A stretch of 64,000 nt of DNA. Source: a virus (taxonomy: Duplodnaviria; Caudoviricetes). Below, in pieces: positions 53,536-64,000 of this stretch. Within the stretch, counting starts at the first letter, position 1, and each line of letters starts with the position of its first letter. The notes beneath the pieces were generated by a model. The model saw only the letters and a list, made by a program, of their open reading frames with translations. It had not been told where the DNA came from and did no database searches. The position numbers and the translations under genes were made by a program. Location: the IMG/VR virus record IMGVR_UViG_3300029305_003320, positions 19,869 to 83,868 of that record; one strand, written 5' to 3'.

Positions 53536-54090
53536 TTACCAAGGAAAGGAATTGATCTCTTCCTCAGTAGGTTCTGTTGTTGAGGTGCTCATGCCAGTCT
53601 TGACAGTGAGCGAAGCCATTTCAAAGATGTCTTTCACAAGAATATTTCCACTCATGCCAATCAACTGCCATCCATGATAGATGAGAGCTCCATTGATGAA
53701 CATGCTAACATCGATATCATACTTGTTAACATCATCTGGAATCTTGTGACCATCTTCTTGAAGATGAATGTGGTGGATCTCTTCCCAGAATTTGTCTTCA
53801 GGATATTGCCACTGCACTGGAGTGCTGAGATGATCTCCAGATGCCATCTCTATCTTCTTGAAGAATGTTAGGAACAGTCCTTTTAGTTGTTCGTAATTAA
53901 GACGAGCTTCTTTTGGAATCCAAGCGCTCTGATCCGAGTCTAGAACCTTGGTCCCGTTAAGACGAACCTGAATGGTAGCCATTACGAACTTCTCGTTAGA
54001 ATGATCTTTGCCATCAGGTTCTTTCTTGGCTAAGTTGTACTTGTCAACGATTTCGTCGTCTTTAGCACCAAAAGCGATTTCGTTTAGCAT
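53536..54090 (-). CDS. Hypothetical protein
   Basis: 184 aa; TAATG coupling to the upstream gene. Confidence 0.6.
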   Translation of the reverse strand: MLNEIAFGAKDDEIVDKYNLAKKEPDGKDHSNEKFVMATIQVRLNGTKVLDSDQSAWIPKEARLNYEQLKGLFLTFFKKIEMASGDHLSTPVQWQYPEDKFWEEIHHIHLQEDGHKIPDDVNKYDIDVSMFINGALIYHGWQLIGMSGNILVKDIFEMASLTVKTGMSTSTTEPTEEEINSFPW

Positions 54091-54671
54091 TACATCAACC
54101 TCTCTTTCTTTTCATTCGTGTTGTGAAATGTTCCGTCTGGATCTATGGCTATAAGGTTCTGTCTGAACATTCTAGCAACAGCACCATCAGACGCTATGAA
54201 AGGGCATCCGATATTGATAGCAGCGTGAAGGTCGTCTGATCTTTCAAGCCTTGACATCTTGCCATTGGCAACTTGTTTGTGTATAGCTTCACTTGCATCT
54301 TCTACAGATTTTTCGTACACTACAACTTGCCTTTGAACAGTTTGCCATACAGTTACAATGAACGGACGGGGTTTCCTGTCATCGTCACTGATTATCTTCA
54401 TTGCGTCGTGATTCGGTGCGCTAGTCCACATGGCTGTAACAAATTCAGCATACTGAGTTATGATGCGAACAAACCCAGCAGCAGCTAGGCGATTTATCGC
54501 TCTCTGTCTAACACAGATTTCATTTCCGTATGCTGGCATTGCGGAATCCGGGTCATTGTTATCATATACAACAACCCTATCTGATCTGATAGCATCTCCG
54601 ACCTTGGCGTGTGATGCTTCATCTAGCAACCGGCTTATACAATCCGGCGTAGTTCTGTTAGATGTATTCAT
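54090..54671 (-). CDS. Hypothetical protein
   Basis: 193 aa; AAGGA RBS. Confidence 0.6.
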   Translation of the reverse strand: MNTSNRTTPDCISRLLDEASHAKVGDAIRSDRVVVYDNNDPDSAMPAYGNEICVRQRAINRLAAAGFVRIITQYAEFVTAMWTSAPNHDAMKIISDDDRKPRPFIVTVWQTVQRQVVVYEKSVEDASEAIHKQVANGKMSRLERSDDLHAAINIGCPFIASDGAVARMFRQNLIAIDPDGTFHNTNEKKERLM

Positions 54672-54682
54672 TTGTTTGTTCC

Positions 54683-55156
54683 TTATTTGGTTTTGGGTCC
54701 TTCACAATAGATCCTCATATCTATGAGGCTATTGGAAAATTTATTGCAAATAGCTTCTTCAACCGTCTTCTTGTCTAGATGACCTAGACCAGATCCTATT
54801 AAAGGTGTTGCAACTGAAGTTAGTTTCAGCTTCTCAAGATATTTCTTTAGGTTAGTAACCCCAGCTTGTATCCATTCCATCTGGCTAGGATCTCTCCAGT
54901 GATTCTTGGTGGCAAGACAAATTATCATCCTCTTCTTGCCTGTGACTAAATCTTTGGTCTGTACACCTAATATTCCTCCTGGTGACATCATACCTATTCC
55001 ACAGTATGTCTTGTAGTTTGTGAATAGATGCTCATATCTTTCCTTGGCTTGTTTGGCTAAACCTGCACCCATAACTCCAACACAGTTGACAGGTATCACT
55101 ATAGCCTGAGCGTCATCATCAAATATGTCCTGAGGTAGGACGATACGTGTTATCAT
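54683..55156 (-). CDS. Macrodomain ADP-ribosylhydrolase (DarG/Poa1p-like)
   Basis: QDIF...AIVIPVNCVGVMGAGLA...ICLATKNHWRDPS...SVATPLIGSGLG; start moved to MITRIV. Confidence 0.85.
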   Translation of the reverse strand: MITRIVLPQDIFDDDAQAIVIPVNCVGVMGAGLAKQAKERYEHLFTNYKTYCGIGMMSPGGILGVQTKDLVTGKKRMIICLATKNHWRDPSQMEWIQAGVTNLKKYLEKLKLTSVATPLIGSGLGHLDKKTVEEAICNKFSNSLIDMRIYCEGPKTK

Positions 55157-55240
55157 CTTGTAGGTCCTTTCGTTGTTAATAGCTGACATAAAAGTCAGTA
55201 CAATACATTGCTGTCTTGCGCAAGATAATAAATACTCAAG

Positions 55241-55273
55241 CATCCTACTGTCCCATTATGGGACAGTAGGATG
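55241..55273 (-). terminator. 16-bp inverted repeat with 1-nt centre
   Basis: Downstream of dut. Confidence 0.65.
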
Positions 55274-55285
55274 GAGTGAAAGATA

Positions 55286-55720
55286 TTACCTTCCAGTTGA
55301 ACCAAATCCACCAGTACCACGATCTGTCTCTGAGAGTTCTTCTACCTTAATAGGATCTGCGAATGTAACTGGTGAAAGGACAAGCTGTGCGATCTTGTCT
55401 CCACGGTTTACACGATAAACAGGAACAGATGAGAACAAGATAATCCCGATCTCTCCGCGGTATTTGGAGTCGATTGTTCCTGGAGAATTCCAAACGGTGA
55501 TGCCCTTGGAAGCCAATCCTGATCTCGGACGAACCTGAAGTTCGTATCCGTCAGGTATTTCAGCTGCTATGCCAGTTTTGACAATAACAGGTCGGTTTAA
55601 AGGAAGCTCGACGTCATGCAGGGCAAACACATCCATCCCAGCGTCACCCTCATGTGCGTAACGTGGAAGCATAGCCCCACTATCTAGTTTCTTAAATCCT
55701 AACTTGATTTTAGTGCTCAT
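55286..55720 (-). CDS. dut: Trimeric dUTPase
   Basis: Motifs AGMD, RPRSG, GTIDSKYRGE, KIAQL, RGTGGFGSTG. Confidence 0.95.
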   Translation of the reverse strand: MSTKIKLGFKKLDSGAMLPRYAHEGDAGMDVFALHDVELPLNRPVIVKTGIAAEIPDGYELQVRPRSGLASKGITVWNSPGTIDSKYRGEIGIILFSSVPVYRVNRGDKIAQLVLSPVTFADPIKVEELSETDRGTGGFGSTGR

Positions 55721-55735
55721 CTATGTGCTCCCTGA

Positions 55736-56026
55736 TTAAACAATTGCCATTTCACCCTTACCGACCATGTAGCTGATGAATGCAGACTTGATCGTGTTGG
55801 GAATCTGTGCCTTCGAGAGTTTCTTGGTGGTGTAGATGATAACATCTTCATCATCGCAAAAAAGCACGATCTGGGGCTCAGGTATTCCATCGTACTTATT
55901 TCTGTAACTGACAGAGAATGTTCTATCTCCTACAGTTACAATGTGAATGGCATCGACATCGCATAGTTCGCTGTACTCTACCGTGACATCAGCGCTCGAG
56001 TGGATCTTAATGACAGATTTTTTCAT
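55736..56026 (-). CDS. Hypothetical protein
   Basis: 96 aa; AGGAG RBS. Confidence 0.6.
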   Translation of the reverse strand: MKKSVIKIHSSADVTVEYSELCDVDAIHIVTVGDRTFSVSYRNKYDGIPEPQIVLFCDDEDVIIYTTKKLSKAQIPNTIKSAFISYMVGKGEMAIV

Positions 56027-56241
56027 TTGGTTTCTCCTAAGAGTTTAGCCATATTGGCATGCTGAATTTTAGTTGTGCCGAAGTCCACAGGCTGCTGCAT
56101 TTTCAAGCCTCTACGTAAAGCAGACTCTGCTTGGCACAAGAAGCTTATAGCATCAATGAAGTGAGCACAGTATTGGCTCACTTCTTCTCCTTTGTACTTC
56201 ACCTTAACCTCAATGTGAGGAACATCTACTGGAGATTCCAT
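56023..56241 (-). CDS. Hypothetical protein
   Basis: 72 aa; ATGA overlap with the next gene. Confidence 0.55.
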   Translation of the reverse strand: MESPVDVPHIEVKVKYKGEEVSQYCAHFIDAISFLCQAESALRRGLKMQQPVDFGTTKIQHANMAKLLGETK

Positions 56242-56245
56242 AGGT

Positions 56246-56488
56246 CTACATGCCCCTGGATATCAAGTAGTCAACTGCATCGTTGATGGTCTTTAGACTC
56301 TCTGCATCTCCCTCTGGAATGCTAATTCCAAATTCTTCCTCTAGAGACATCAATAGTTCAATACAATCTAAAGAGTCCGCGGCAAGATCGTTAACTATAC
56401 TAGCAGTCGGTGTAGCTTGTTCCTTATCTACACCCAACTGATCAATAACGATCTCTGTTACTTTCTTAAGTATCTCTTCCTTGCTCAT
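56246..56488 (-). CDS. acpP: Acyl carrier protein (canonical DSL)
   Basis: QLGV...DLAADSLDCIELLMSLEEEFGISIP...LKTIND. Confidence 0.9.
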   Translation of the reverse strand: MSKEEILKKVTEIVIDQLGVDKEQATPTASIVNDLAADSLDCIELLMSLEEEFGISIPEGDAESLKTINDAVDYLISRGM

Positions 56489-56514
56489 TTTGTTACCTTT
56501 TTTGATGGTTAAAT

Positions 56515-56591
56515 TGGTCGGAGTTGAGGGATTTGAACCCCCGACTTACTGCTCCCAAAGCAGTCGCACTACCAGGCTGTGCTAAACTCCG
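56515..56591 (-). tRNA. tRNA-Pro (UGG)
   Basis: Full cloverleaf; anticodon arm ACTGC-TT TGG GA-GCAGT; encoded CCA. Confidence 0.95.
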
Positions 56592-56593
56592 AA

Positions 56594-56670
56594 TGGTGGA
56601 CGATGAGAGATTTGAACTCCCGACTTAGTGCGTGTAAAGCACTCACTCTGACCAACTGAGTTAATCGTCC
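56594..56670 (-). tRNA. tRNA-Val (UAC)
   Basis: AGTGC-TT TAC AC-GCACT; encoded CCA. Confidence 0.95.
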
Positions 56671-56674
56671 TTTT

Positions 56675-56748
56675 TGGTTGTCCTGCCCGGATTCGAACCA
56701 GAACTAAGAGAATCAAAGTCTCCTGTGCTGCCAATACACTACAGGACA
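56675..56748 (-). tRNA. tRNA-Gln (UUG)
   Basis: GGAGA-CT TTG AT-TCTCT; U1-A72; encoded CCA. Confidence 0.92.
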
Positions 56749-56762
56749 ACTACTACAGCACA

Positions 56763-57356
56763 TTACTTGTAAACCGGGAACGACGAGACGTGGATAGCTC
56801 CGACATCAAACACGTCTCTAATGAGATCTTCGACTAGAGTTGTCTGCAGTCCCTTAATATTGGCTAGTGAATCTGCCTGATACGTCAGACCTATGCCAGG
56901 AAATTCTGCGAAATCCCAAATGGTGTCATACTGATCGACAACCCTGTCAAACTTGGGCTCGAACCTGCTGTGTGCAAATAGCAACTTAAACAGGCGAATA
57001 AATTCGTCGTGACTGATCTTGTACGAAGGCTTATCTACCTCCTCCATCTTACCATGATAGGTAGATATAAGCTTGACGTTGAGCTTGAGTCCGCCAAACG
57101 AATGTTTCCTCTTAAGGAAGAACTTGTATGCCTCGACCAGATCCGGGTCGCTTACATATACCCAGACCGTTTTCTCATTGAAATCAAACTCAGTGATCAC
57201 CTTCTCGCAGTTAGCGAGTAGTGTCTCGATCTTAGTAGCCATCTCTGTAATCGGATTGGCGAGTGTCGGAAGTATCGAGATAGGCGACGCTTTCAAATCA
57301 TCATCTGTTTTGAATAGCTTGCGAACGTCGGATTTGATCTTACGCGGTTTTGCCAT
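56763..57356 (-). CDS. Hypothetical protein, paralog of 16088-16660, inside the tRNA array
   Basis: Shared motifs listed under 16088-16660; AAGGAGG RBS. Confidence 0.7.
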   Translation of the reverse strand: MAKPRKIKSDVRKLFKTDDDLKASPISILPTLANPITEMATKIETLLANCEKVITEFDFNEKTVWVYVSDPDLVEAYKFFLKRKHSFGGLKLNVKLISTYHGKMEEVDKPSYKISHDEFIRLFKLLFAHSRFEPKFDRVVDQYDTIWDFAEFPGIGLTYQADSLANIKGLQTTLVEDLIRDVFDVGAIHVSSFPVYK

Positions 57357-57389
57357 TTTGGCCTCCTTATTGTTTATGGTTTGTTATAT

Positions 57390-57465
57390 TGGTAGGACTT
57401 GCGGGGATCGAACCCGCGACCCTGTCATTAAAAGTGACATGCTCTACCTACTGAGCTAAAGTCCC
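57390..57465 (-). tRNA. tRNA-Lys (UUU)
   Basis: TGTCA-CT TTT AA-TGACA; encoded CCA. Confidence 0.95.
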
Positions 57466-57476
57466 ACCGAAATTGT

Positions 57477-58196
57477 TTATTTAGCTACAGGTTTCTGCTT
57501 CACATAGATCTTGCAAATGCAAGGAACCCCATAGTCCTTGTTTTTCACAAAATCTTCACAGTGGCATTTCGTACCGTTAGCTTTAGCCTGGCACGGGCAA
57601 TAGCCGCCATTTTTATCAATAGCATCGAGCACTTTATTCACTTGAGCAGTAGTCAATCCCTCATTAAGACGAACAACGTAATCAGTTGCTACAGGAGCTG
57701 GTGTTGGATCTGGTGCAGGTTGCGGCTTCGGTTCTGCCGGTTTACTTGCTAGAATCTTTTTAAGAGCCGCAATCATCTTCTTGGCACCAGCGTCTTTAGT
57801 TTCTTTGCCACGAAGAGTGTCACCATCTACATAAGTGTCCGAAATAATTTTCTTCCCGTCTTTCGACCAAAGAGTGATGCGGAATCCAGGAAACCACTTT
57901 ATTTTGCCTGCATTGAAAATCCAGTTGTATAATGTTTGCCCTTTGTCTTTATCCCCTGAATACTGAAACACAAAATACACATCTGCAGATGTCATCCACG
58001 TGATGAAAGACTTTTGCATCATGCATGCCTCTGTTGCTATACAGCTGCCGCATTTGTCTCCGTTGGACCAGCATGTTATAATAAACTTATACTGCTTCTT
58101 AGCCAGAGCAAGCGCAGACTTATAGTTCTTATTCCATATACCCAATTTGGGTGCAGAACTAGAACGTTTCTTTAGAAAATTAGATGTTGTTCCCAT
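57477..58196 (-). CDS. Thioredoxin-fold protein fused to a ferredoxin:thioredoxin-reductase catalytic-like domain
   Basis: N-domain W...SALALAKK...WSNGDKCGSC (CxxC); Pro-rich linker; C-domain GYCPC...KCHC...PCICKIY. Confidence 0.7.
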   Translation of the reverse strand: MGTTSNFLKKRSSSAPKLGIWNKNYKSALALAKKQYKFIITCWSNGDKCGSCIATEACMMQKSFITWMTSADVYFVFQYSGDKDKGQTLYNWIFNAGKIKWFPGFRITLWSKDGKKIISDTYVDGDTLRGKETKDAGAKKMIAALKKILASKPAEPKPQPAPDPTPAPVATDYVVRLNEGLTTAQVNKVLDAIDKNGGYCPCQAKANGTKCHCEDFVKNKDYGVPCICKIYVKQKPVAK

Positions 58197-58224
58197 GATT
58201 GTTACCTTTTAGTTTACTGGTTGT

Positions 58225-58310
58225 TGGTGCTCCAGATGGGACTCGAACCCATATTCCTTTACAGGAAGCGGATTTTAAGTCCGCTGCGTATGCCATTTCG
58301 CCACTGGAGC
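58225..58310 (-). tRNA. tRNA-Leu (UAA)
   Basis: GCGGA-CT TAA AA-TCCGC; long variable arm; encoded CCA. Confidence 0.95.
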
Positions 58311-58312
58311 AG

Positions 58313-58389
58313 TGGCGGGCCTGGCGGGACTCGAACCCACTACCCGCTGCTTAGAAGGCAGCTGCTCTGTCCAGATGAGCTACAGGCCC
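58313..58389 (-). tRNA. tRNA-Arg (UCU)
   Basis: GCTGC-CT TCT AA-GCAGC; encoded CCA. Confidence 0.95.
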
Positions 58390-58391
58390 AT

Positions 58392-58466
58392 TGGCACCTC
58401 CAAGGAGAATCGAACTCCTCTAACGAGCATGAAAAGCTCGTGTCCTAGCCGATAGACGATGGAGGC
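58392..58466 (-). tRNA. tRNA-Glu (UUC)
   Basis: CGAGC-TT TTC AT-GCTCG; encoded CCA. Confidence 0.92.
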
Positions 58467-58469
58467 CCG

Positions 58470-58905
58470 GGATAACCAGATTAACGTACTGGATTTTATC
58501 GATTGCTCATCTACCCGATGTATGAAAGCGCAGAACATTGCTGCGACGGCGAGCCATCTAAGTAGAATTCGTCGATAACGTGCGTTAGGAGGGGTTGCAA
58601 ACCTGTCTCGTCGTATTAGAACGCACCAGTCCGGCGCGAGGATTTAGAACTTTAGTTGAAAGGATTGGTTCACTCATCCGACTGAGCCCATCTATCTGGG
58701 TCCGAAGGACTTCCTCCAGTTATTCCGAATTCAGATTATCTCATACGGGGCGGAATCACATACTTACCTTTCGCTCGTCACTACTAGACTAAGTACGATA
58801 TTGCCGTTTAAGCATAAGCGGAACTAAAGGGCATTGCAGTCCGTGCCCTGTAGCGGGCTCATCATTCCACTTACATCCGTCTGACTTTAAACCCTCATCT
58901 GAGTG
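58470..58905 (-). ncRNA. Candidate large structured non-coding RNA (one or two domains)
   Basis: No credible ORF. A 12-bp long-range stem UUGGUUCACUCA/UGAGUGAACCAA encloses GAGCCC/GGGCUC and AGGGCA/UGCCCU stems. A second domain has GUGCGUU/AACGCAC and UUAUCGA/UCGAUAA stems. Confidence 0.5.
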
Positions 58906-58926
58906 AACCAAATTGTTGAAGCTGTA

Positions 58927-58950
58927 TGGAGCACTAGACGGGACTCGAAC
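58927..58950 (-). pseudogene. 3' stub of split tRNA B (T-loop, T-stem 3' strand, acceptor 3' strand, CCA)
   Basis: GTTCGAGT CCCGT CTAGTGC T CCA; pairs 7/7 with the 5' stub at 59679-59685. Confidence 0.85.
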
Positions 58951-59659
58951 AAAGATTGTACTTGCGAATCCATCTTCTAACAGATGTGCTAGTTACATTG
59001 TAACGTCTATCAATAGCCGCCAATGAATTATCTCTTTTTAGTACTTCCTCTAATTCTTCTTTAGAAGGAGATTTTTCTTTAAGCTTCTGTCTAATGCAAG
59101 CACTGCATAAATTTCCTTTCGCCTTTTGATACATAGATCTCCCACATGAAGAACAGTGTCTTGTTTCAACTACATCATTTATGTGGGAATATGGAGAAGG
59201 GTCTCCTTTTCTAATAAAAGCGTGTAATTTTGAATGCTGAGATTGTGTTAATACCATTAAGTTTTCAGGAGAATTATTTTGTTTATTTCCGTCTATGTGG
59301 TGTACAACCTCATCTTTAGTTAAGGGTCTGCCAATTATCTTAGATGCTATAAGCCTGTGTTTATACACATATCCAGGGTGTCCAGATTTAGAACTATTTG
59401 GATGGTCTGGGTTGTATACAAAAGAGTAATTTCCGTTACTATACTCGGTGTTATGAGCAATCATTCTTTCAGGTTTTACGCATCCGCATGAGTTAGATTG
59501 ACCTCTTAATAAAACCTGTTCAGCTATAACGGATTCCGTCTGGTTTGAGCAGTCACATTTGCATCTAACAGCTTTAACTTTTTTATTACTTGCCCCGTAG
59601 AATTTGAATAGCCCAATTTCTACAACAGTCCAGTGACCGAATTTGTCGCCTATTTGCAT
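58934..59659 (-). CDS. HNH homing endonuclease (HNH_3 type with N-terminal Zn module and C-terminal HTH-like region)
   Basis: GDKFGHWTV...CKCDC...SCGC; YKHRLIA...VHHIDGNKQNNSPENL...HSKLH; likely start MQIGDK (59659). Confidence 0.9.
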   Translation of the reverse strand: MQIGDKFGHWTVVEIGLFKFYGASNKKVKAVRCKCDCSNQTESVIAEQVLLRGQSNSCGCVKPERMIAHNTEYSNGNYSFVYNPDHPNSSKSGHPGYVYKHRLIASKIIGRPLTKDEVVHHIDGNKQNNSPENLMVLTQSQHSKLHAFIRKGDPSPYSHINDVVETRHCSSCGRSMYQKAKGNLCSACIRQKLKEKSPSKEELEEVLKRDNSLAAIDRRYNVTSTSVRRWIRKYNLCSSPV

Positions 59660-59666
59660 ATATTCC

Positions 59667-59685
59667 CCAACTGAGTTACTAGTGC
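59667..59685 (-). pseudogene. 5' stub of split tRNA B (acceptor 5' strand, D-stem 5' strand, part of D-loop)
   Basis: GCACTAG TA ACTC AGTTGG, starting 3 nt after the CCA of stub A. Confidence 0.85.
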
Positions 59686-59688
59686 TTC

Positions 59689-59708
59689 TGGAGCCGGCGG
59701 AGGGACTC
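59689..59708 (-). pseudogene. 3' stub of split tRNA A (probably Thr)
   Basis: GAGT CCCTC CGCCGGC T CCA; pairs with GCCGGTG at 60567-60573 (6 Watson-Crick pairs plus 1 G-U). Confidence 0.8.
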
Positions 59709-59710
59709 AC

Positions 59711-60433
59711 TCACTTAAAGTACTTCTCTCTCCATCGACGTGTACTTGTACGATTACCTTTTCTCTTGAATGTATCTGTCTGAGCATCACAATTGCAACA
59801 AAGCAATCGCAAGTTATCGATCGAATGATTTGATGAATCTCCATCGATGTGGTCAACCACAAGTGGTACTGGTTGCCCATTCCAAGTTGATATTCCACAT
59901 TTGGAACATTTGTGACCAACAGTTTCTTCAAGATATTTCCTAACGACTTTTCGTCTTGTATCGTTTGTCGTTATGCAGTGAGGATATTCACCAGTAGATT
60001 CAATTGTAGCTTTTATTTGGTCCCATTTTGACGTGTTCGATATTGCTTGCGGCAAGGGTTTCTCGCTCTTGTGTTTTGAATCATACTCTTCTCTACACAT
60101 CGGAGAACAAAACGGATCATTCAGACTTGTCCTCAATTTCCCACAGTTCGCACAGGTGAATTTGTGTCCGTCTCCACCAAGTGCAATTGAACGATTGTAT
60201 CGTTGTTCAATGGTGACCTCTCTACCAGTGTTACTTACTGTTGCCGAGCACGAGTGACTACAAAATCGGTTAGACCGATGCTCGTAATCTATCGGTTGGC
60301 CACAACGTTCACACAATTTAGGGTTTTCGTTGTACTTTCTAATATTTTCAGCCTTCTGTGAAGCCGCACGCTCACGTGTTTTAGTAACACCAAGCAAACC
60401 GGCTTCTCTATGACTCATTCCGTTTCTTATCAT
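59711..60433 (-). CDS. HNH endonuclease (McrA-like, with several Cys4 Zn motifs)
   Basis: CERCG, FCSHSC, CANCG, FCSPMC, CSKCG...VDHIDGDSSNHSIDNLRLLCCNCD. Confidence 0.9.
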   Translation of the reverse strand: MIRNGMSHREAGLLGVTKTRERAASQKAENIRKYNENPKLCERCGQPIDYEHRSNRFCSHSCSATVSNTGREVTIEQRYNRSIALGGDGHKFTCANCGKLRTSLNDPFCSPMCREEYDSKHKSEKPLPQAISNTSKWDQIKATIESTGEYPHCITTNDTRRKVVRKYLEETVGHKCSKCGISTWNGQPVPLVVDHIDGDSSNHSIDNLRLLCCNCDAQTDTFKRKGNRTSTRRWREKYFK

Positions 60434-60476
60434 TGCAATTACTCCAATCAGCTATCGTTCCGACTTGAACATACAA

Positions 60477-60551
60477 TGGAGCCACGTGAGGGAATCGAAC
60501 CCCCTTCCAGACATTACAAATGTCTACGTGAACCAATCACGCTAACGTGGC
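60477..60551 (-). tRNA. tRNA-Thr (UGU), nested inside the footprint of split tRNA A
   Basis: AGACA-TT TGT AA-TGTCT; GCCACGT/ACGTGGC acceptor; U73; encoded CCA. Confidence 0.9.
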
Positions 60552-60559
60552 AAACAGAA

Positions 60560-60573
60560 TGAGCTACACCGGC
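60560..60573 (-). pseudogene. 5' stub of split tRNA A
   Basis: GCCGGTG TA GCTC A, starting 1 nt after the CCA of tRNA(CAU). Confidence 0.75.
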
Positions 60574-60574
60574 T

Positions 60575-60651
60575 TGGTGGACCCAGCAGGACTTGAACCT
60601 GCGACCCAGTGATTATGAGTCACTCGCTCTGACCGACTGAGCTATGGGTCC
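60575..60651 (-). tRNA. tRNA with CAU anticodon (probably Ile2/lysidine type, elongator Met not excluded)
   Basis: AGTGA-CT CAT AA-TCACT; GGACCCA acceptor; paired G1-C72, so not an initiator. Confidence 0.85.
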
Positions 60652-60655
60652 GTTG

Positions 60656-60742
60656 TGGCGGAGAGTGAGAGATTCGAACTCCCAGTTCCTTTCGGAACGG
60701 CGGTTTAGTAAACCGCTGCATTCACCATTCTGCCAACTCTCC
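60656..60742 (-). tRNA. tRNA-Ser with ACU anticodon
   Basis: GCGGT-TT ACT AA-ACCGC; long variable arm GTTCC GAAA GGAAC; G73; GGAGAGT acceptor; encoded CCA. Confidence 0.9.
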
Positions 60743-60750
60743 GTCTAAAT

Positions 60751-61263
60751 TTACTCTTTAGTTGCAGGTATACCAAATGCTTTATTGAACTCTACCTTAG
60801 GTCCTCGACCTGCTTCCAATAGATAAGGTACAATACCGCATTCTGTTGGGATGTAGACAAACTTTGCATTGTCTGTATTGAAAGTTCTTACTGCAAGATA
60901 CTTGATATACGTATCCGTTAGTTTGCCGTTTTCGATTTCGATGGCTTTAGCTGCACCTTTGGCTCTCTCAACTTCTGCTTCAGCATTGAGCTTCTCTGCT
61001 TCAAGATTAGCTTTAGCTTCTTCGATCTTGATCTGACGATTCTGCTCAGCTCTTACAAGTTCAGCCTTTCCTTGTAGCTCAGACTTCCACACGTTATAGA
61101 GAGGTAGCCCCCACATAAGAAGTGGGATGAGCATAATTACTGCTAAGATTAGTATAAATCCGCAACCTATTTGAGATAGCGGGAAGTCTTTCATCGGGTT
61201 GTCCATAATCGATCTCTCCTTACCGAATACCCATGGTGGGTGATTGTCTAAAACAGATGACAT
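60751..61263 (-). CDS. Membrane-anchored SPFH/band-7-like coiled-coil protein
   Basis: TM segment, then LPLYNVW...GKAEL..AE.NRQI.IEEAKA...AEAEVERAKG.A.A...YIPTE. Confidence 0.7.
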   Translation of the reverse strand: MSSVLDNHPPWVFGKERSIMDNPMKDFPLSQIGCGFILILAVIMLIPLLMWGLPLYNVWKSELQGKAELVRAEQNRQIKIEEAKANLEAEKLNAEAEVERAKGAAKAIEIENGKLTDTYIKYLAVRTFNTDNAKFVYIPTECGIVPYLLEAGRGPKVEFNKAFGIPATKE

Positions 61264-61288
61264 TGTGTCACCTCCTTGAAAGTGTTAA

Positions 61289-61388
61289 AAGGACTGGCAG
61301 AGTCGAACTGCCTTCTCCTCCTAGCCTAGCCTACCTCCATAGGCACGATGGGTCACTAAGAGTCGCATTACCGTTATGCTAAGTCCAA
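61289..61388 (-). ncRNA. tRNA-like RNA with expanded non-canonical anticodon arm and no encoded CCA
   Basis: GGACT/AGTCC acceptor core; D-arm GCAT-AACGGTA-ATGC; T-arm GGCAG-TTCGACT-CTGCC; central ~50-nt branched arm. Confidence 0.6.
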
Positions 61389-61569
61389 TTGACCGCGCAG
61401 AGGCAGAGCCTCCGTTTAACCAGGTCAGCGGCCCCATGTTGGGGAGTCAGGATGGATAACGCTTCCGGCGCCATCGGGCTTCATAGAGTGACACCTGGTA
61501 ACATCAAGTGTCTGACACGCATAGTTACGTACCTATACGCATCCTCCGTCCCTCTGGAAGATTATCAAA

Positions 61570-62001
61570 TTACCTTTCTTCAGCGTAGCGGTCCGATGCT
61601 AAGTGAACATCGAATGATTTACTTTCACCGCCCCACTTGAACACGAACTCAACATTAACATCATCGCCGTCTCTGACGATCATCTTGGAATCAGACTTCA
61701 TCTTCTTCAGGAAATCTTCAGGACAAAGGTTAACATACTCTTCATATGTGGACCTGTTCTTGCATCTAATGACATAATCTTCAATGCGAATGCCCATGTA
61801 GCGGAAATCAACGCCAACCCAGTAAACAGCACCAGGTCCTTCGTCGAATCCGTGTACGTTAGCCCAGTGAAGATGACCATCGGGCCAGAGCTTAGTTTCA
61901 TCGTGAATGTGATTTATCCAATGTATCTGTTCTGTAGAACCTAACAACGGATGCCTTAGTCTACGAAACAGTTTGCTGAAAATAACTTTAATTAGTTTCA
62001 T
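61570..62001 (-). CDS. Hypothetical protein
   Basis: 143 aa; GAGGA RBS. Confidence 0.6.
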   Translation of the reverse strand: MKLIKVIFSKLFRRLRHPLLGSTEQIHWINHIHDETKLWPDGHLHWANVHGFDEGPGAVYWVGVDFRYMGIRIEDYVIRCKNRSTYEEYVNLCPEDFLKKMKSDSKMIVRDGDDVNVEFVFKWGGESKSFDVHLASDRYAEER

Positions 62002-62223
62002 GGCATTCCTCGTTTTGTTGACAAAGTAAAAGGATAACCGGACTAACGTGCCGGATTTTCATGATTTCTCATCTGGCCGTACATGAGCTACTACACGCGG
62101 CAAAGAAGAACACGTGTAGCCATGTGGATACTAACCAGAATTCGTCATGAACGCAGCATGCGAAAGGAAGAGCTGACCTGACCACATGGCAGTACCATGT
62201 GTAGCGGAAGGACTCTTTTCCCG

Positions 62224-62590
62224 CTACACACCCCGAGACAATTGTTGTTGAATGATCTGATGCATTTCTTCATAGTCAGGAAGTCCAAGATATTTACTAC
62301 ACACAGGAACTGCATTGCTCTTGGTGTAAATATACTGGAACATGAAATCCTGGACAGTATCTGACATGAAACGCATAGCATCGATACGAGCATCCTTAGT
62401 TAGGCTCTCGTCATTATACTTGACAAGTCCCTCTGCTACCTCTGGTATAGCATCGATCTGATCTGTAGTAACAGACACTGGTTTCTTGAGCATTCTTCCG
62501 CCAGGAGATGGTCGTATATACAGAATAGTTGCAATCTTCGTCTCTCTGGTACAATTCTGCATCATCATTTCGTGAGGGTATTCTGCTTTG
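62224..62590 (-). CDS. Family-B DNA polymerase subunit (phiKZ gp82-like), exon 2
   Basis: Predicted splicing restores motif A: DID-V/KAEYPHEMMMQNCTRETK. Confidence 0.8.
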
Positions 62591-63182
62591 CTTTTCTCTC
62601 TAATACTCGTTTCCGTTTAGATTCAATGCTAGCATCTCTTGCTTTTCTTAGGCTGTTTGTTATCGCTCCGGACTCAAATGCGTATTTCATGTTTTCAGAT
62701 CTAGTGACCCACCTTAGATTCTCAACACAGTTGTTTGATTTATCTCCATCTATGTGATCTATCTCTGGCAAGTTATTAGGGTTCGGTATAAACGCATCAG
62801 CTACAACTCTGTGAAGTAGATACGACTTACCTTCAACACTAACGTACTTGTATCTCTTAACATCCATTTTCGCTAGAATCTCACCAGTCTCTACATTTCT
62901 AGCCACCCCATCAGGACTAACTAAAACTTTGCCTTGTAGCGCAGTTGAGTATCCGGCTTTATCTAGCTTAGGTTTAAGAAAAGCTTTAAATGCTAGCACT
63001 TTAGTGCTTCGTCTAGAATAAGACCCGTCTGATTGCATTAATAATGTGCATCCAGTTTTGTCTATTCTTTTAAAAGCACCTCCTCTTTTTCGAGAACGGT
63101 TCGACCACACTCTTCCGTCTGGATAAATAAAATACCCAGGAGCATAGCCGAATTTATCTAATGGAATTGATTCATCTGTCAT
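62565..63182 (-). CDS. Intron-encoded NUMOD4/HNH homing endonuclease (I-HmuI-like)
   Basis: GYFIYPDGRVWS; YLLHRVVADAFIPNPNNLPEIDHIDGDKSNNCVENLRWVTRSEN; AAGGAG RBS; stop codon lies in exon 2. Confidence 0.92.
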   Translation of the reverse strand: MTDESIPLDKFGYAPGYFIYPDGRVWSNRSRKRGGAFKRIDKTGCTLLMQSDGSYSRRSTKVLAFKAFLKPKLDKAGYSTALQGKVLVSPDGVARNVETGEILAKMDVKRYKYVSVEGKSYLLHRVVADAFIPNPNNLPEIDHIDGDKSNNCVENLRWVTRSENMKYAFESGAITNSLRKARDASIESKRKRVLERKAKQNTLTK

Positions 63183-63486
63183 TGTAATTATCTCCTTCTA
63201 ATAGGTAATAAATACATGGCAGTGTTTAGAGATTTGGGTCATATCACCACCCTCCAGTTACGGGTCGGGTGCACTTCGTTTCGGGTTGTACCCTACTCCC
63301 TTGCGGGATGACCTCCGAACACACTTCTCATAGAGAAGCTTCGCTGCTGATTGCCGCTCGGCTATCTTTTTCAAACCATCACGCTCGTCTTTGCAGACCA
63401 CGTTGTGGTAGTAGCTTCATCGCAACGTCCCAGCAATTAGAAGTGTTTTACATGCCGATTACGCGGCAAGGACGCCAAAGTAGTTA
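62591..63486 (-). mobile_element. Group I intron (IA2-like) in the DNA polymerase gene
   Basis: P1 GACGUUAA/UUGGCGUC with U-G pair; P2 UGCCG/CGGCA; P3 CACUUC/GAAGUG; P4 UGCUG/CAGCA; P7 GG(A)GUCAU-type/AUGACCC; P7.1 UCCC-GCAA-GGGA; P8; UCUCUAA/UUAGAGA long-range stem; omega-G at 62591; P10 CUUUG/CAAAG. Confidence 0.92.
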
Positions 63487-64000
63487 ACGTCAATATCGAA
63501 CACCAACTTGTGAACATACGACTCCTCATCGGATTCGATGAGGATCGATACACCAGTACCTTTAGTTCGTTCAGGATCCAGTACCTGTCCTCCTTTATTG
63601 GTGATGTACTTATCCCAAGGAGTATCAAGCCTCTGACCTACAGAACATGGTACACCTTGTAGAGGGTCAAGATAGACCATGAACGTGTTTTTAAGTTGAA
63701 TGGATTGCTTTGAGAAATCTTCAGGAAGAGATTCTCCTATAAGCATCATCATGGTTCGAATGTCATTATTCTTTAACTCCAACATCCTGAGAAGCATAAC
63801 GTCGACGATATTGTACACCGTATATTCAACCTTGTGCTCTCTCTGCATGATGTGGTGATCGGAACTCTCATTGAACTCAAGCTTACCTGTACCCAACTCT
63901 TTATTACAAATCGCATTTAGCTGATAGGAAGGTTCTCGTGCCTGCACCTTCCTTATTCGTCCATACATGCACATGGCATCGATGTATCTGGTGTAGTCAG
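63487..64000 (-). CDS. Family-B DNA polymerase subunit (phiKZ gp82-like), exon 1 (continues beyond the window)
   Basis: Frame is open to 64000; exonuclease-type IDAMCMY...SYQLNAI...YNIVD; ends LVFDID-GT. Confidence 0.85.

Follow-up and report, generated by a model that had tools for sequence, protein, structure and literature searches.

Homing endonucleases are usually said to spare the gene that hosts them, either by hiding in self-splicing introns or inteins or by sitting between genes. Integrating elements whose attP matches tRNA genes carry a copy of the tRNA 3' end. In phage T4, the free-standing GIY-YIG enzyme SegB lies in a tRNA cluster, recognises the T-arm motif GGTTCRANTCC and cuts tRNA genes at their 3' ends; when its gene spreads, the tRNA genes around it spread as well (PMC2330249). 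Association with tRNA genes is widespread among SegB homologues, which can amplify anti-defence tRNAs (PMC13096335), and phage T5, according to texts that cite the work on F-Tfl (PMC10644984 and PMC2330249), has genes for HNH enzymes within its tRNA region. Here I describe a tRNA array in a 64,000-nucleotide (nt) stretch of the IMG/VR virus record IMGVR_UViG_3300029305_003320 (hereafter the window), in which a divergent tRNA-Thr(UGU) gene (Thr'), a spacer and the gene of a free-standing HNH enzyme (HNH1) stand between the two ends of another tRNA-Thr gene. I hold with good confidence that these three parts form a cassette that replaced the middle of the resident tRNA-Thr gene and is spreading by homing, and that the array in the window is the derived allele, one that has been invaded.

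What does this place look like in relatives without the HNH gene? A blastn search revealed no close relatives of the region or its surroundings among GenBank phages. An exact-protein look-up of a 239-amino-acid (aa) gene within the array recovered the ENA contig L094, in which the upstream 170-aa gene and the 239-aa gene lie about 1.5 kilobases (kb) closer together than they do in the window. Metagenome records, scanned by pattern, yielded a second HNH-less contig with the same layout, L105 (GenBank whole-genome shotgun record JAEEGL015972904.1); the two contigs are independent and belong to the phage lineage of the window. Both carry an uninterrupted 75-nt tRNA-Thr(UGU) gene at the same position after tRNA(CAU) (L094:845-919 and L105:1799-1873). 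In L094 this gene starts one base after Met(CAU) with GCCGGTGTAGCTCA, ends with CCCTCCGCCGGCTCCA, and is followed by GAA and an intact tRNA-Gly(UCC) gene that starts with GCACTAGTAACTCAGTTGG and ends with GTTCGAGTCCCGTCTAGTGCTCCA; the intact native tRNA-Thr scores 68.2 bits against the Rfam tRNA model. An earlier reading of the window, made from its letters without database searches (the sequence-only reading), had proposed that HNH-less relatives would carry one intact GCCGGTG...CGCCGGC tRNA-Thr here, and this is exactly what L094 and L105 contain. Because the intact gene bears both stub ends in two HNH-less contigs, the pairing of the stubs in the window is more than a chance match.

Piecewise alignment of the window with the empty allele gives 94% identity upstream and 99% downstream. 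The ancestral order, as found in L094 and L105, is Ser(ACU)-Met(CAU)-Thr(UGU)-Gly(UCC), a 460-nt non-coding stretch, and Glu-Arg-Leu, and the filled order (170-aa gene, HNH1, a second HNH gene termed HNH2, 239-aa gene) recurs in two further Joint Genome Institute (JGI) assemblies. The locus is thus polymorphic for presence and absence of the insert, being filled in the window and the two JGI contigs and empty in L094 and L105. The samples behind the two alleles are JGI 3300031555 and 3300032167 and ENA ERZ12302850. Furthermore, the empty allele retains 42 nt of native tRNA that have gone from the filled one. The filled allele is accordingly the derived state, for deletion could not turn it into the empty allele. 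Other candidates for an empty site were set aside: the IMG/VR contigs L002-L006, reached through the upstream 170-aa protein, are too distant and are without the array, and in L007 a tRNA-Thr whose ends match stands in an unrelated context.

The two stubs, the nested tRNA-Thr and the HNH gene of the sequence-only reading were all located where it had placed them, base for base (Table 1). The array is read on the minus strand and coordinates are those of the whole stretch. A single A at 60574 separates the CCA of tRNA(CAU), which is identical in L105, from the 5' stub, and this stub is an exact match to L094:845-858 and L105:1799-1812. On the other side, the HNH1 stop codon TGA is followed by GT and then by the 3' stub, which differs from L094:900-919 by one mismatch, at T-loop position 59 (G, not A). 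The acceptor strands GCCGGTG and CGCCGGC pair at 7/7 positions, including one G-U. By piecewise alignment to L094, native positions 15-56 are absent from the window and their place is occupied by a unit of about 0.84 kb (Thr', the 43-nt spacer and HNH1). Junctions were set by this piecewise method; a MAFFT global alignment misplaced the left flank. The filler at the left junction is not present in the HNH-less alleles or in L095 and L096, two contigs that carry the cassette and are described below.

Table 1. The disrupted part of the tRNA array, from its start to the last remnant of tRNA-Gly.
Feature	Positions	Strand	Basis or remark
tRNA-Ser(ACU)	60656-60742	-	array start, downstream of 170-aa gene
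tRNA(CAU), upstream neighbour	60575-60651	-	ARAGORN; Rfam 74.7 bits
native tRNA-Thr(UGU) 5' stub, positions 1-14, GCCGGTGTAGCTCA	60560-60573	-	
left-junction filler, 8 nt, TTCTGTTT	60552-60559	-	
cassette tRNA-Thr(UGU), Thr'	60477-60551	-	ARAGORN; Rfam tRNA 44.7 bits
spacer, 43 nt, with GGAG ribosome-binding site	60434-60476	-	
HNH1 open reading frame, 240 aa	59711-60433	-	Pfam HNH_3; presumed homing endonuclease
native tRNA-Thr(UGU) 3' stub, T-loop position 57 to 73 plus CCA, GAGTCCCTCCGCCGGCTCCA	59689-59708	-	
native tRNA-Gly(UCC) 5' stub, positions 1-19, GCACTAGTAACTCAGTTGG	59667-59685	-	
HNH2, 241 aa, HNH_3 plus C-terminal helix-turn-helix (HTH)	58934-59659	-	Pfam HNH_3, HTH_28
native tRNA-Gly(UCC) 3' stub, position 53 to CCA, GTTCGAGTCCCGTCTAGTGCTCCA	58927-58950	-	aligned to L094:975-998

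Thr' shares only about 60% identity with the native tRNA-Thr and has several oddities (G14, C21, a missing nucleotide 26 and a 4-nt variable loop), yet it is complete. Copies of Thr' keep G1-C72, C2-G71 and the UGU anticodon, and score 39-45 bits against the Rfam tRNA model (threshold 29 bits) compared with 68 for the native gene. Among four close copies the differences lie almost only in stems and are concentrated in the anticodon stem; five pairs show compensatory double changes, 98.8% of cells are paired, and the covariation score was reached by 0 of 500 shuffles. This comparison supports the view that Thr' is a maintained tRNA gene whose cloverleaf has been preserved through compensatory changes. 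As one part of the explanation that I favour with good confidence, Thr' is predicted to be a divergent but working tRNA-Thr(UGU). When JGI metagenomes, IMG/VR and 185k cellular genomes were scanned for its exact D-arm signature, no match came up. The native gene is 72/75 identical to cellular tRNA-Thr genes in metagenome-assembled genomes (MAGs) from gut and rumen. The near-identical genes lie in the cellular MAG contigs L121, L122 and L125, and the matches belong to uncultured rumen or gut bacteria and to the Lentisphaerota/Kiritimatiellota type, which gives a hint of the hosts that this uncultured phage may infect.

HNH1 scores 27.6 bits against Pfam HNH_3 (PF13392; cut-off 24.8), and matches to PHROG HNH families stand at 8e-24 (HNH1) and 8e-26. 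It is an HNH_3 (His-Me finger) protein with two N-terminal zinc ribbons; Pfam finds no GIY-YIG domain in it. The motif CxxC..DHI.G..N.R..CxNCD is invariant in 15 HNH1 homologues (residues C176, C179, D194, H195, N207, C212, N214, C215 and D216), and the ratio of nonsynonymous to synonymous substitution rates (dN/dS) is 0.21 between the window and L095. Together, the invariant catalytic and zinc residues and the low dN/dS show that HNH1 is maintained under purifying selection. As regards the beta-beta-alpha-metal fold, an AlphaFold2 model (mean pLDDT, the predicted local distance difference test, 83.6) has strands at 191-195 and 208-212 followed by a helix at 213-217. A Foldseek search of this protein against the PDB returned weak matches to HNH domains (McrA, PacI, the Cas9 HNH domain and Cap5), none at E <= 0.001, and a profile search of PDB sequences with the whole protein gave no significant match. 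The insert consists of a tRNA gene and an open reading frame (ORF) with its own ribosome-binding site, and no Rfam intron family matches at E up to 1; thus HNH1 is not housed in a self-splicing intron or an intein.

Is the cassette confined to this array? I drew HNH1 homologues from IMG/VR and a large protein collection and retrieved their contigs. The closest, in L095, encodes a protein 89% identical to HNH1, and the DNA is 91% identical over Thr', 88% over the spacer and 90% over the HNH gene, in flanks that are unrelated. L095 has the same 43-nt spacer length and the same ORF end, AAGTGAGTGA, but it is bordered by a tRNA-Arg(UCU) on the upstream side and, downstream, by a dUTPase-like gene. 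Its 3' stub, GAATCCCACCGGAGGCTCCA, comes from another tRNA and starts at the same T-loop position as the stub in the window; an exact-pattern scan with it found no match. In the syntenic contig L096, the cassette occupies the same locus, again with a 43-nt spacer; the native Thr 3' stub is present and the 5' stub is absent. This variant of the cassette is 65% identical to that of the window, and its HNH gene has only 63% nucleotide identity, as against 98.8% for Glu-Arg-Leu. Either L096 acquired the cassette separately, from a donor that had diverged, or the cassette evolves much faster than its flanks; the figures fit both. The same tRNA type stands behind a 5' stub, CCGGTGTAGCTCAATCGGCAGA, in L098; in L097 the 5' stub extends into the anticodon stem, in L011 the 3' stub begins in the variable region, and L009 probably has a stub pair.

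The association is with one tRNA species. A tRNA-Thr(UGU) gene lies within 113 nt of 13/16 HNH1 relatives (30-89% identity), mostly 43-113 nt upstream on the same strand; it starts at the HNH stop codon in L012 and HdH2, and is placed tail to tail with the HNH gene in L008. The most distant relatives, in Atu_ph07 and Xoo-sp15, also lie in tRNA arrays, beside other tRNAs. With 10-25 tRNA species per array, this linkage is far from chance, and it points to tRNA-Thr(UGU) genes as the likely target of the HNH1 clade. The proposal in the sequence-only reading that tRNA and nuclease travel as a cassette is supported by three lines of evidence: the roughly 90% identity between the window and L095 in unrelated flanks, the linkage in 13/16 relatives, and the compensatory changes in Thr'.

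A second presence/absence pattern is found in T5-like phages, where a relative 35% identical to HNH1 abuts tRNA-Thr(UGU) and many genomes are without the HNH gene. The set comprised cultured Tequintavirus and Epseptimavirus, including coliphages and Salmonella phages, of which L106, L111, L114 and L115 are HNH-plus and L110, L112, L113 and L116-L118 are HNH-minus. Phages of the HdH2, PMBT27 and MET_P1-88 types have the HNH gene, and those of the oldekolle, AKFV33 and Bas26 types are without it. The anticodon stem of tRNA-Thr is ACGGT/ACCGT in 4/4 HNH-plus genomes and GTTGC/GCATC in 6/6 HNH-minus genomes, whereas the remainder of the gene is nearly identical between the two groups. This is the pattern that intronless homing with a linked immune allele would predict. 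The annotation of the HdH2-type relative of HNH1 goes no further than weak similarity to a GAP32 HNH. Moreover, the part missing from every stub covers roughly positions 34-43 (the anticodon with the 3' strand of the anticodon stem), and HNH1 probably cuts in or beside the anticodon stem-loop.

The neighbouring tRNA-Gly(UCC) gene has been disrupted as well. A GAA spacer separates the tRNA-Thr 3' stub from GCACTAGTAACTCAGTTGG, and alignment to L094 shows that tRNA-Gly positions 20-52 have been replaced by HNH2, whose last five codons and stop codon fall inside the tRNA-Gly remnant. The gene is intact in L094 (923-998), L105 (1877-1952) and L096 (3286-3361). HNH2 is unrelated to HNH1 (Pfam HNH_3: 52.9 bits, 2.9e-14), and I found no substitute tRNA-Gly within the 83.9-kb contig. 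The sequence-only reading had suggested that the supply of a substitute tRNA makes homing cost-free; since HNH2 destroyed tRNA-Gly(UCC) and supplied nothing, such a substitution may be a by-product of co-conversion and not a requirement. An exact-pattern scan with the tRNA-Gly 5' stub was without match, and HNH2 has no close homologue, the best being 44% identical over 58% of the query. Its nearest contexts, L103 and L104, are too distant to serve as a guide to its target.

Some observations on related HNH genes may be added. In L103:1390-2140, the 44%-identical relative of HNH2 lies between the tRNA-like 5' two-thirds of a gene (acceptor GCATCTA, D-arm and UCU anticodon arm) and its 3' part (T-arm and acceptor 3' strand TAGGTGC). 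The acceptor strands pair 7/7, and this is probably another HNH-split tRNA gene. The HNH2 relative in L104 adjoins a tRNA-Thr. A third HNH_3 ORF of 205 aa (PHROG HNH 2.8e-34) lies upstream of the array in the window (62565-63182, minus strand) and is also found in a contig of JGI 3300031555.

How might such an allele arise? From these sequence comparisons I infer cleavage, its site, the immunity of Thr' and the route of repair, as follows. In a mixed infection, HNH1 would cut the tRNA-Thr(UGU) gene of a phage without the HNH gene. The break would be resected and repaired from the donor, which would copy in the HNH gene together with the linked tRNA allele, the latter being one that the enzyme would not cut. 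Where donor and recipient are close relatives, homology would come from the stubs and from the tRNA genes next to them, with tRNA(CAU) serving on the upstream side, and the process would be intronless homing of the ordinary kind. When the unit first enters a foreign array, joints would instead form at short matches within the tRNA, which would account for the varied stubs and junctions in L095, L096, L098, L097 and L009. The ends of the old tRNA-Thr gene would be left behind as dead stubs. HNH2 would have entered tRNA-Gly(UCC) likewise, bringing no replacement.

Several points weigh against this explanation. The position of the cut is deduced only from the parts missing from the stubs and from the T5-like alleles, which come from 10 related genomes. 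In the clade of the window, HNH similarity and the Thr' anticodon stem are uncoupled: the window and L098 share the same stem at about 50% HNH identity, and the window and L095 have different stems at 89%. Immunity by recoding of the stem is thus not a simple rule, and another pressure may act on the Thr' anticodon stem. The HNH2/tRNA-Gly case shows that an invaded phage persists without a substitute tRNA. A stub pair such as that of L009, taken alone, is expected by chance in about 1 case in 5. Finally, the sequence covers only about 32% of the genome, and other tRNA-Thr or tRNA-Gly genes may lie elsewhere in it.

Of the other explanations, the one that survives best is that Thr' is the cargo: the tRNA would be useful to the phage, for example by escaping a host anticodon nuclease, and the HNH gene would drive its spread. 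This is compatible with homing, and as the account of why Thr' is there I consider it possible but rather unlikely. Besides resembling cellular genes at 72/75 positions, the native tRNA-Thr reads UAAUCA at 36-41 (U36-A-A-U-C-A41), the stretch named around the point where AriB, of the PARIS system, cuts E. coli tRNA-Thr(UGU) (bioRxiv 10.1101/2025.02.04.636281). Copies of Thr' differ there, reading UAAUGU, UAAGGA or UAAGUC. Variation among the four Thr' copies is concentrated in the anticodon stem, and SegB has been reported to amplify anti-defence tRNA genes (PMC13096335). However, escape from the element's own nuclease would be expected to produce the same variation in the stem, and HNH2 has spread without any cargo. 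I would put forward only tentatively, as an idea with small prospects, the combined view that the unit is both a selfish element and an anti-defence vector, in which a cell-like tRNA-Thr(UGU) of the kind attacked by PARIS AriB-type nucleases is overwritten by a strongly divergent tRNA whose anticodon stem goes on changing through compensatory substitutions. If it were true, tRNA alleles that confer resistance would be carried by a nuclease through phage populations and from one phage to others unrelated to it. In a weaker variant, since the native gene is near-identical to cellular tRNA-Thr, the enzyme may also cut the host chromosome.

Alternatively, HNH1 might be a passenger, one more small gene picked up in the array, and the cassette might have entered by illegitimate recombination between conserved tRNA segments, independent of any nuclease, given that tRNA genes can act as hot spots for exchange. 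The junctions do fall in the conserved D-arm and T-loop, and short matches are open to any recombination system. Nevertheless, I regard this as improbable: a single HNH clade keeps company, tightly and repeatedly, with a single tRNA species, and does so in four different arrangements and in phages that are unrelated; two phage groups show the presence/absence polymorphism exactly at the tRNA-Thr gene; purifying selection acts on the nuclease motif, which is conserved; and a second HNH gene sits in the adjoining tRNA gene. That the stubs form a working split or intron-containing tRNA, joined as RNA, is hardly credible even though they pair perfectly as an acceptor stem, for they hold only positions 1-14 and 57-76 with no D-stem 3' strand, anticodon arm or T-stem 5' strand, no Rfam intron is found at E up to 1 in 54000-64000 of the window, what lies between the stubs is a whole tRNA gene and an ORF, and relatives have the intact gene. 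An assembly chimera can be given next to no weight although the window comes from a metagenome assembly, given that the same gene order occurs in two other JGI assemblies and variants of the cassette in independent Logan assemblies.

Three further features of the array and its surroundings deserve mention. About 300 nt upstream of the array, a patch within the 170-aa gene (60877-60988, minus strand) mismatches L094 at roughly every third base in the midst of 94-99% identical flanks, and looks like a mosaic segment derived from recombination. The 460-nt stretch between tRNA-Gly and tRNA-Glu (58467-58926, minus strand) is free of ORFs, is conserved in L094 (few mismatches), L105 and L096 (87%), and resembles a sequence that precedes tRNA-Arg in L095:581-845; Rfam gave no match to it at E up to 1, and it may encode a stable RNA of the tRNA array. 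Lastly, the anticodon ACU of tRNA-Ser is also called in the arrays of L094, L095, L096 and L105, and its presence across five arrays shows that it is conserved and not a sequencing error.

What, then, does this locus add? If the cassette moves as proposed, it represents a third way for a homing endonuclease to live with its host gene, which is to destroy the target and supply in its stead a gene that presumably escapes cutting, and the filled and empty contigs provide natural before-and-after alleles. The locus is also direct evidence for units that jump between non-syntenic tRNA arrays, which would help to explain the mosaic tRNA sets of phages, and the T5-like phages offer a ready experimental system in which to study drive, target and links to defence.

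Comparison with described systems places the element among several relatives in behaviour. Like integrating elements with attP in tRNA genes, it inserts presumably without loss of function, brings a replacement sequence and leaves the displaced 3' end downstream; unlike them, it has no integrase or att repeat, and the whole tRNA is replaced by one only about 60% identical. The F-Tfl enzymes of T5 are likewise of the HNH type, their genes stand in the tRNA cluster of a large lytic phage and are present in some relatives only, and a linked replacement tRNA is not mentioned in the texts that cite them. In the intronless homing of T4 SegF, SegG and MobE (PMC2988022, PMC2790892), the nuclease gene also lies beside its target, and the linked allele is uncut and co-copied, as is proposed for HNH1. 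Those enzymes, however, convert a homologous gene cleanly, whereas the HNH1 unit brings a heterologous whole tRNA, the resident gene loses its middle while both ends remain as scars, and the unit crosses into non-syntenic arrays. In the literature searched I found no description of a tRNA-plus-HNH layout with stubs. SegB is, with intronless homing, the closest parallel, as a free-standing nuclease gene in a phage tRNA array whose enzyme targets tRNA genes and whose homing carries neighbouring tRNA genes along and removes recipient markers. Yet SegB is a GIY-YIG enzyme without preference for a single tRNA species (PMC2330249; PMC13096335), and as described it does not form a compact tRNA-nuclease unit flanked by the stubs of a destroyed target. 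The HNH1 element would work like SegB and the T5 enzymes but is not a relative of SegB, and what sets it apart is the tie to one tRNA species, the compact unit of tRNA and nuclease, and the destroyed target that survives as stubs.

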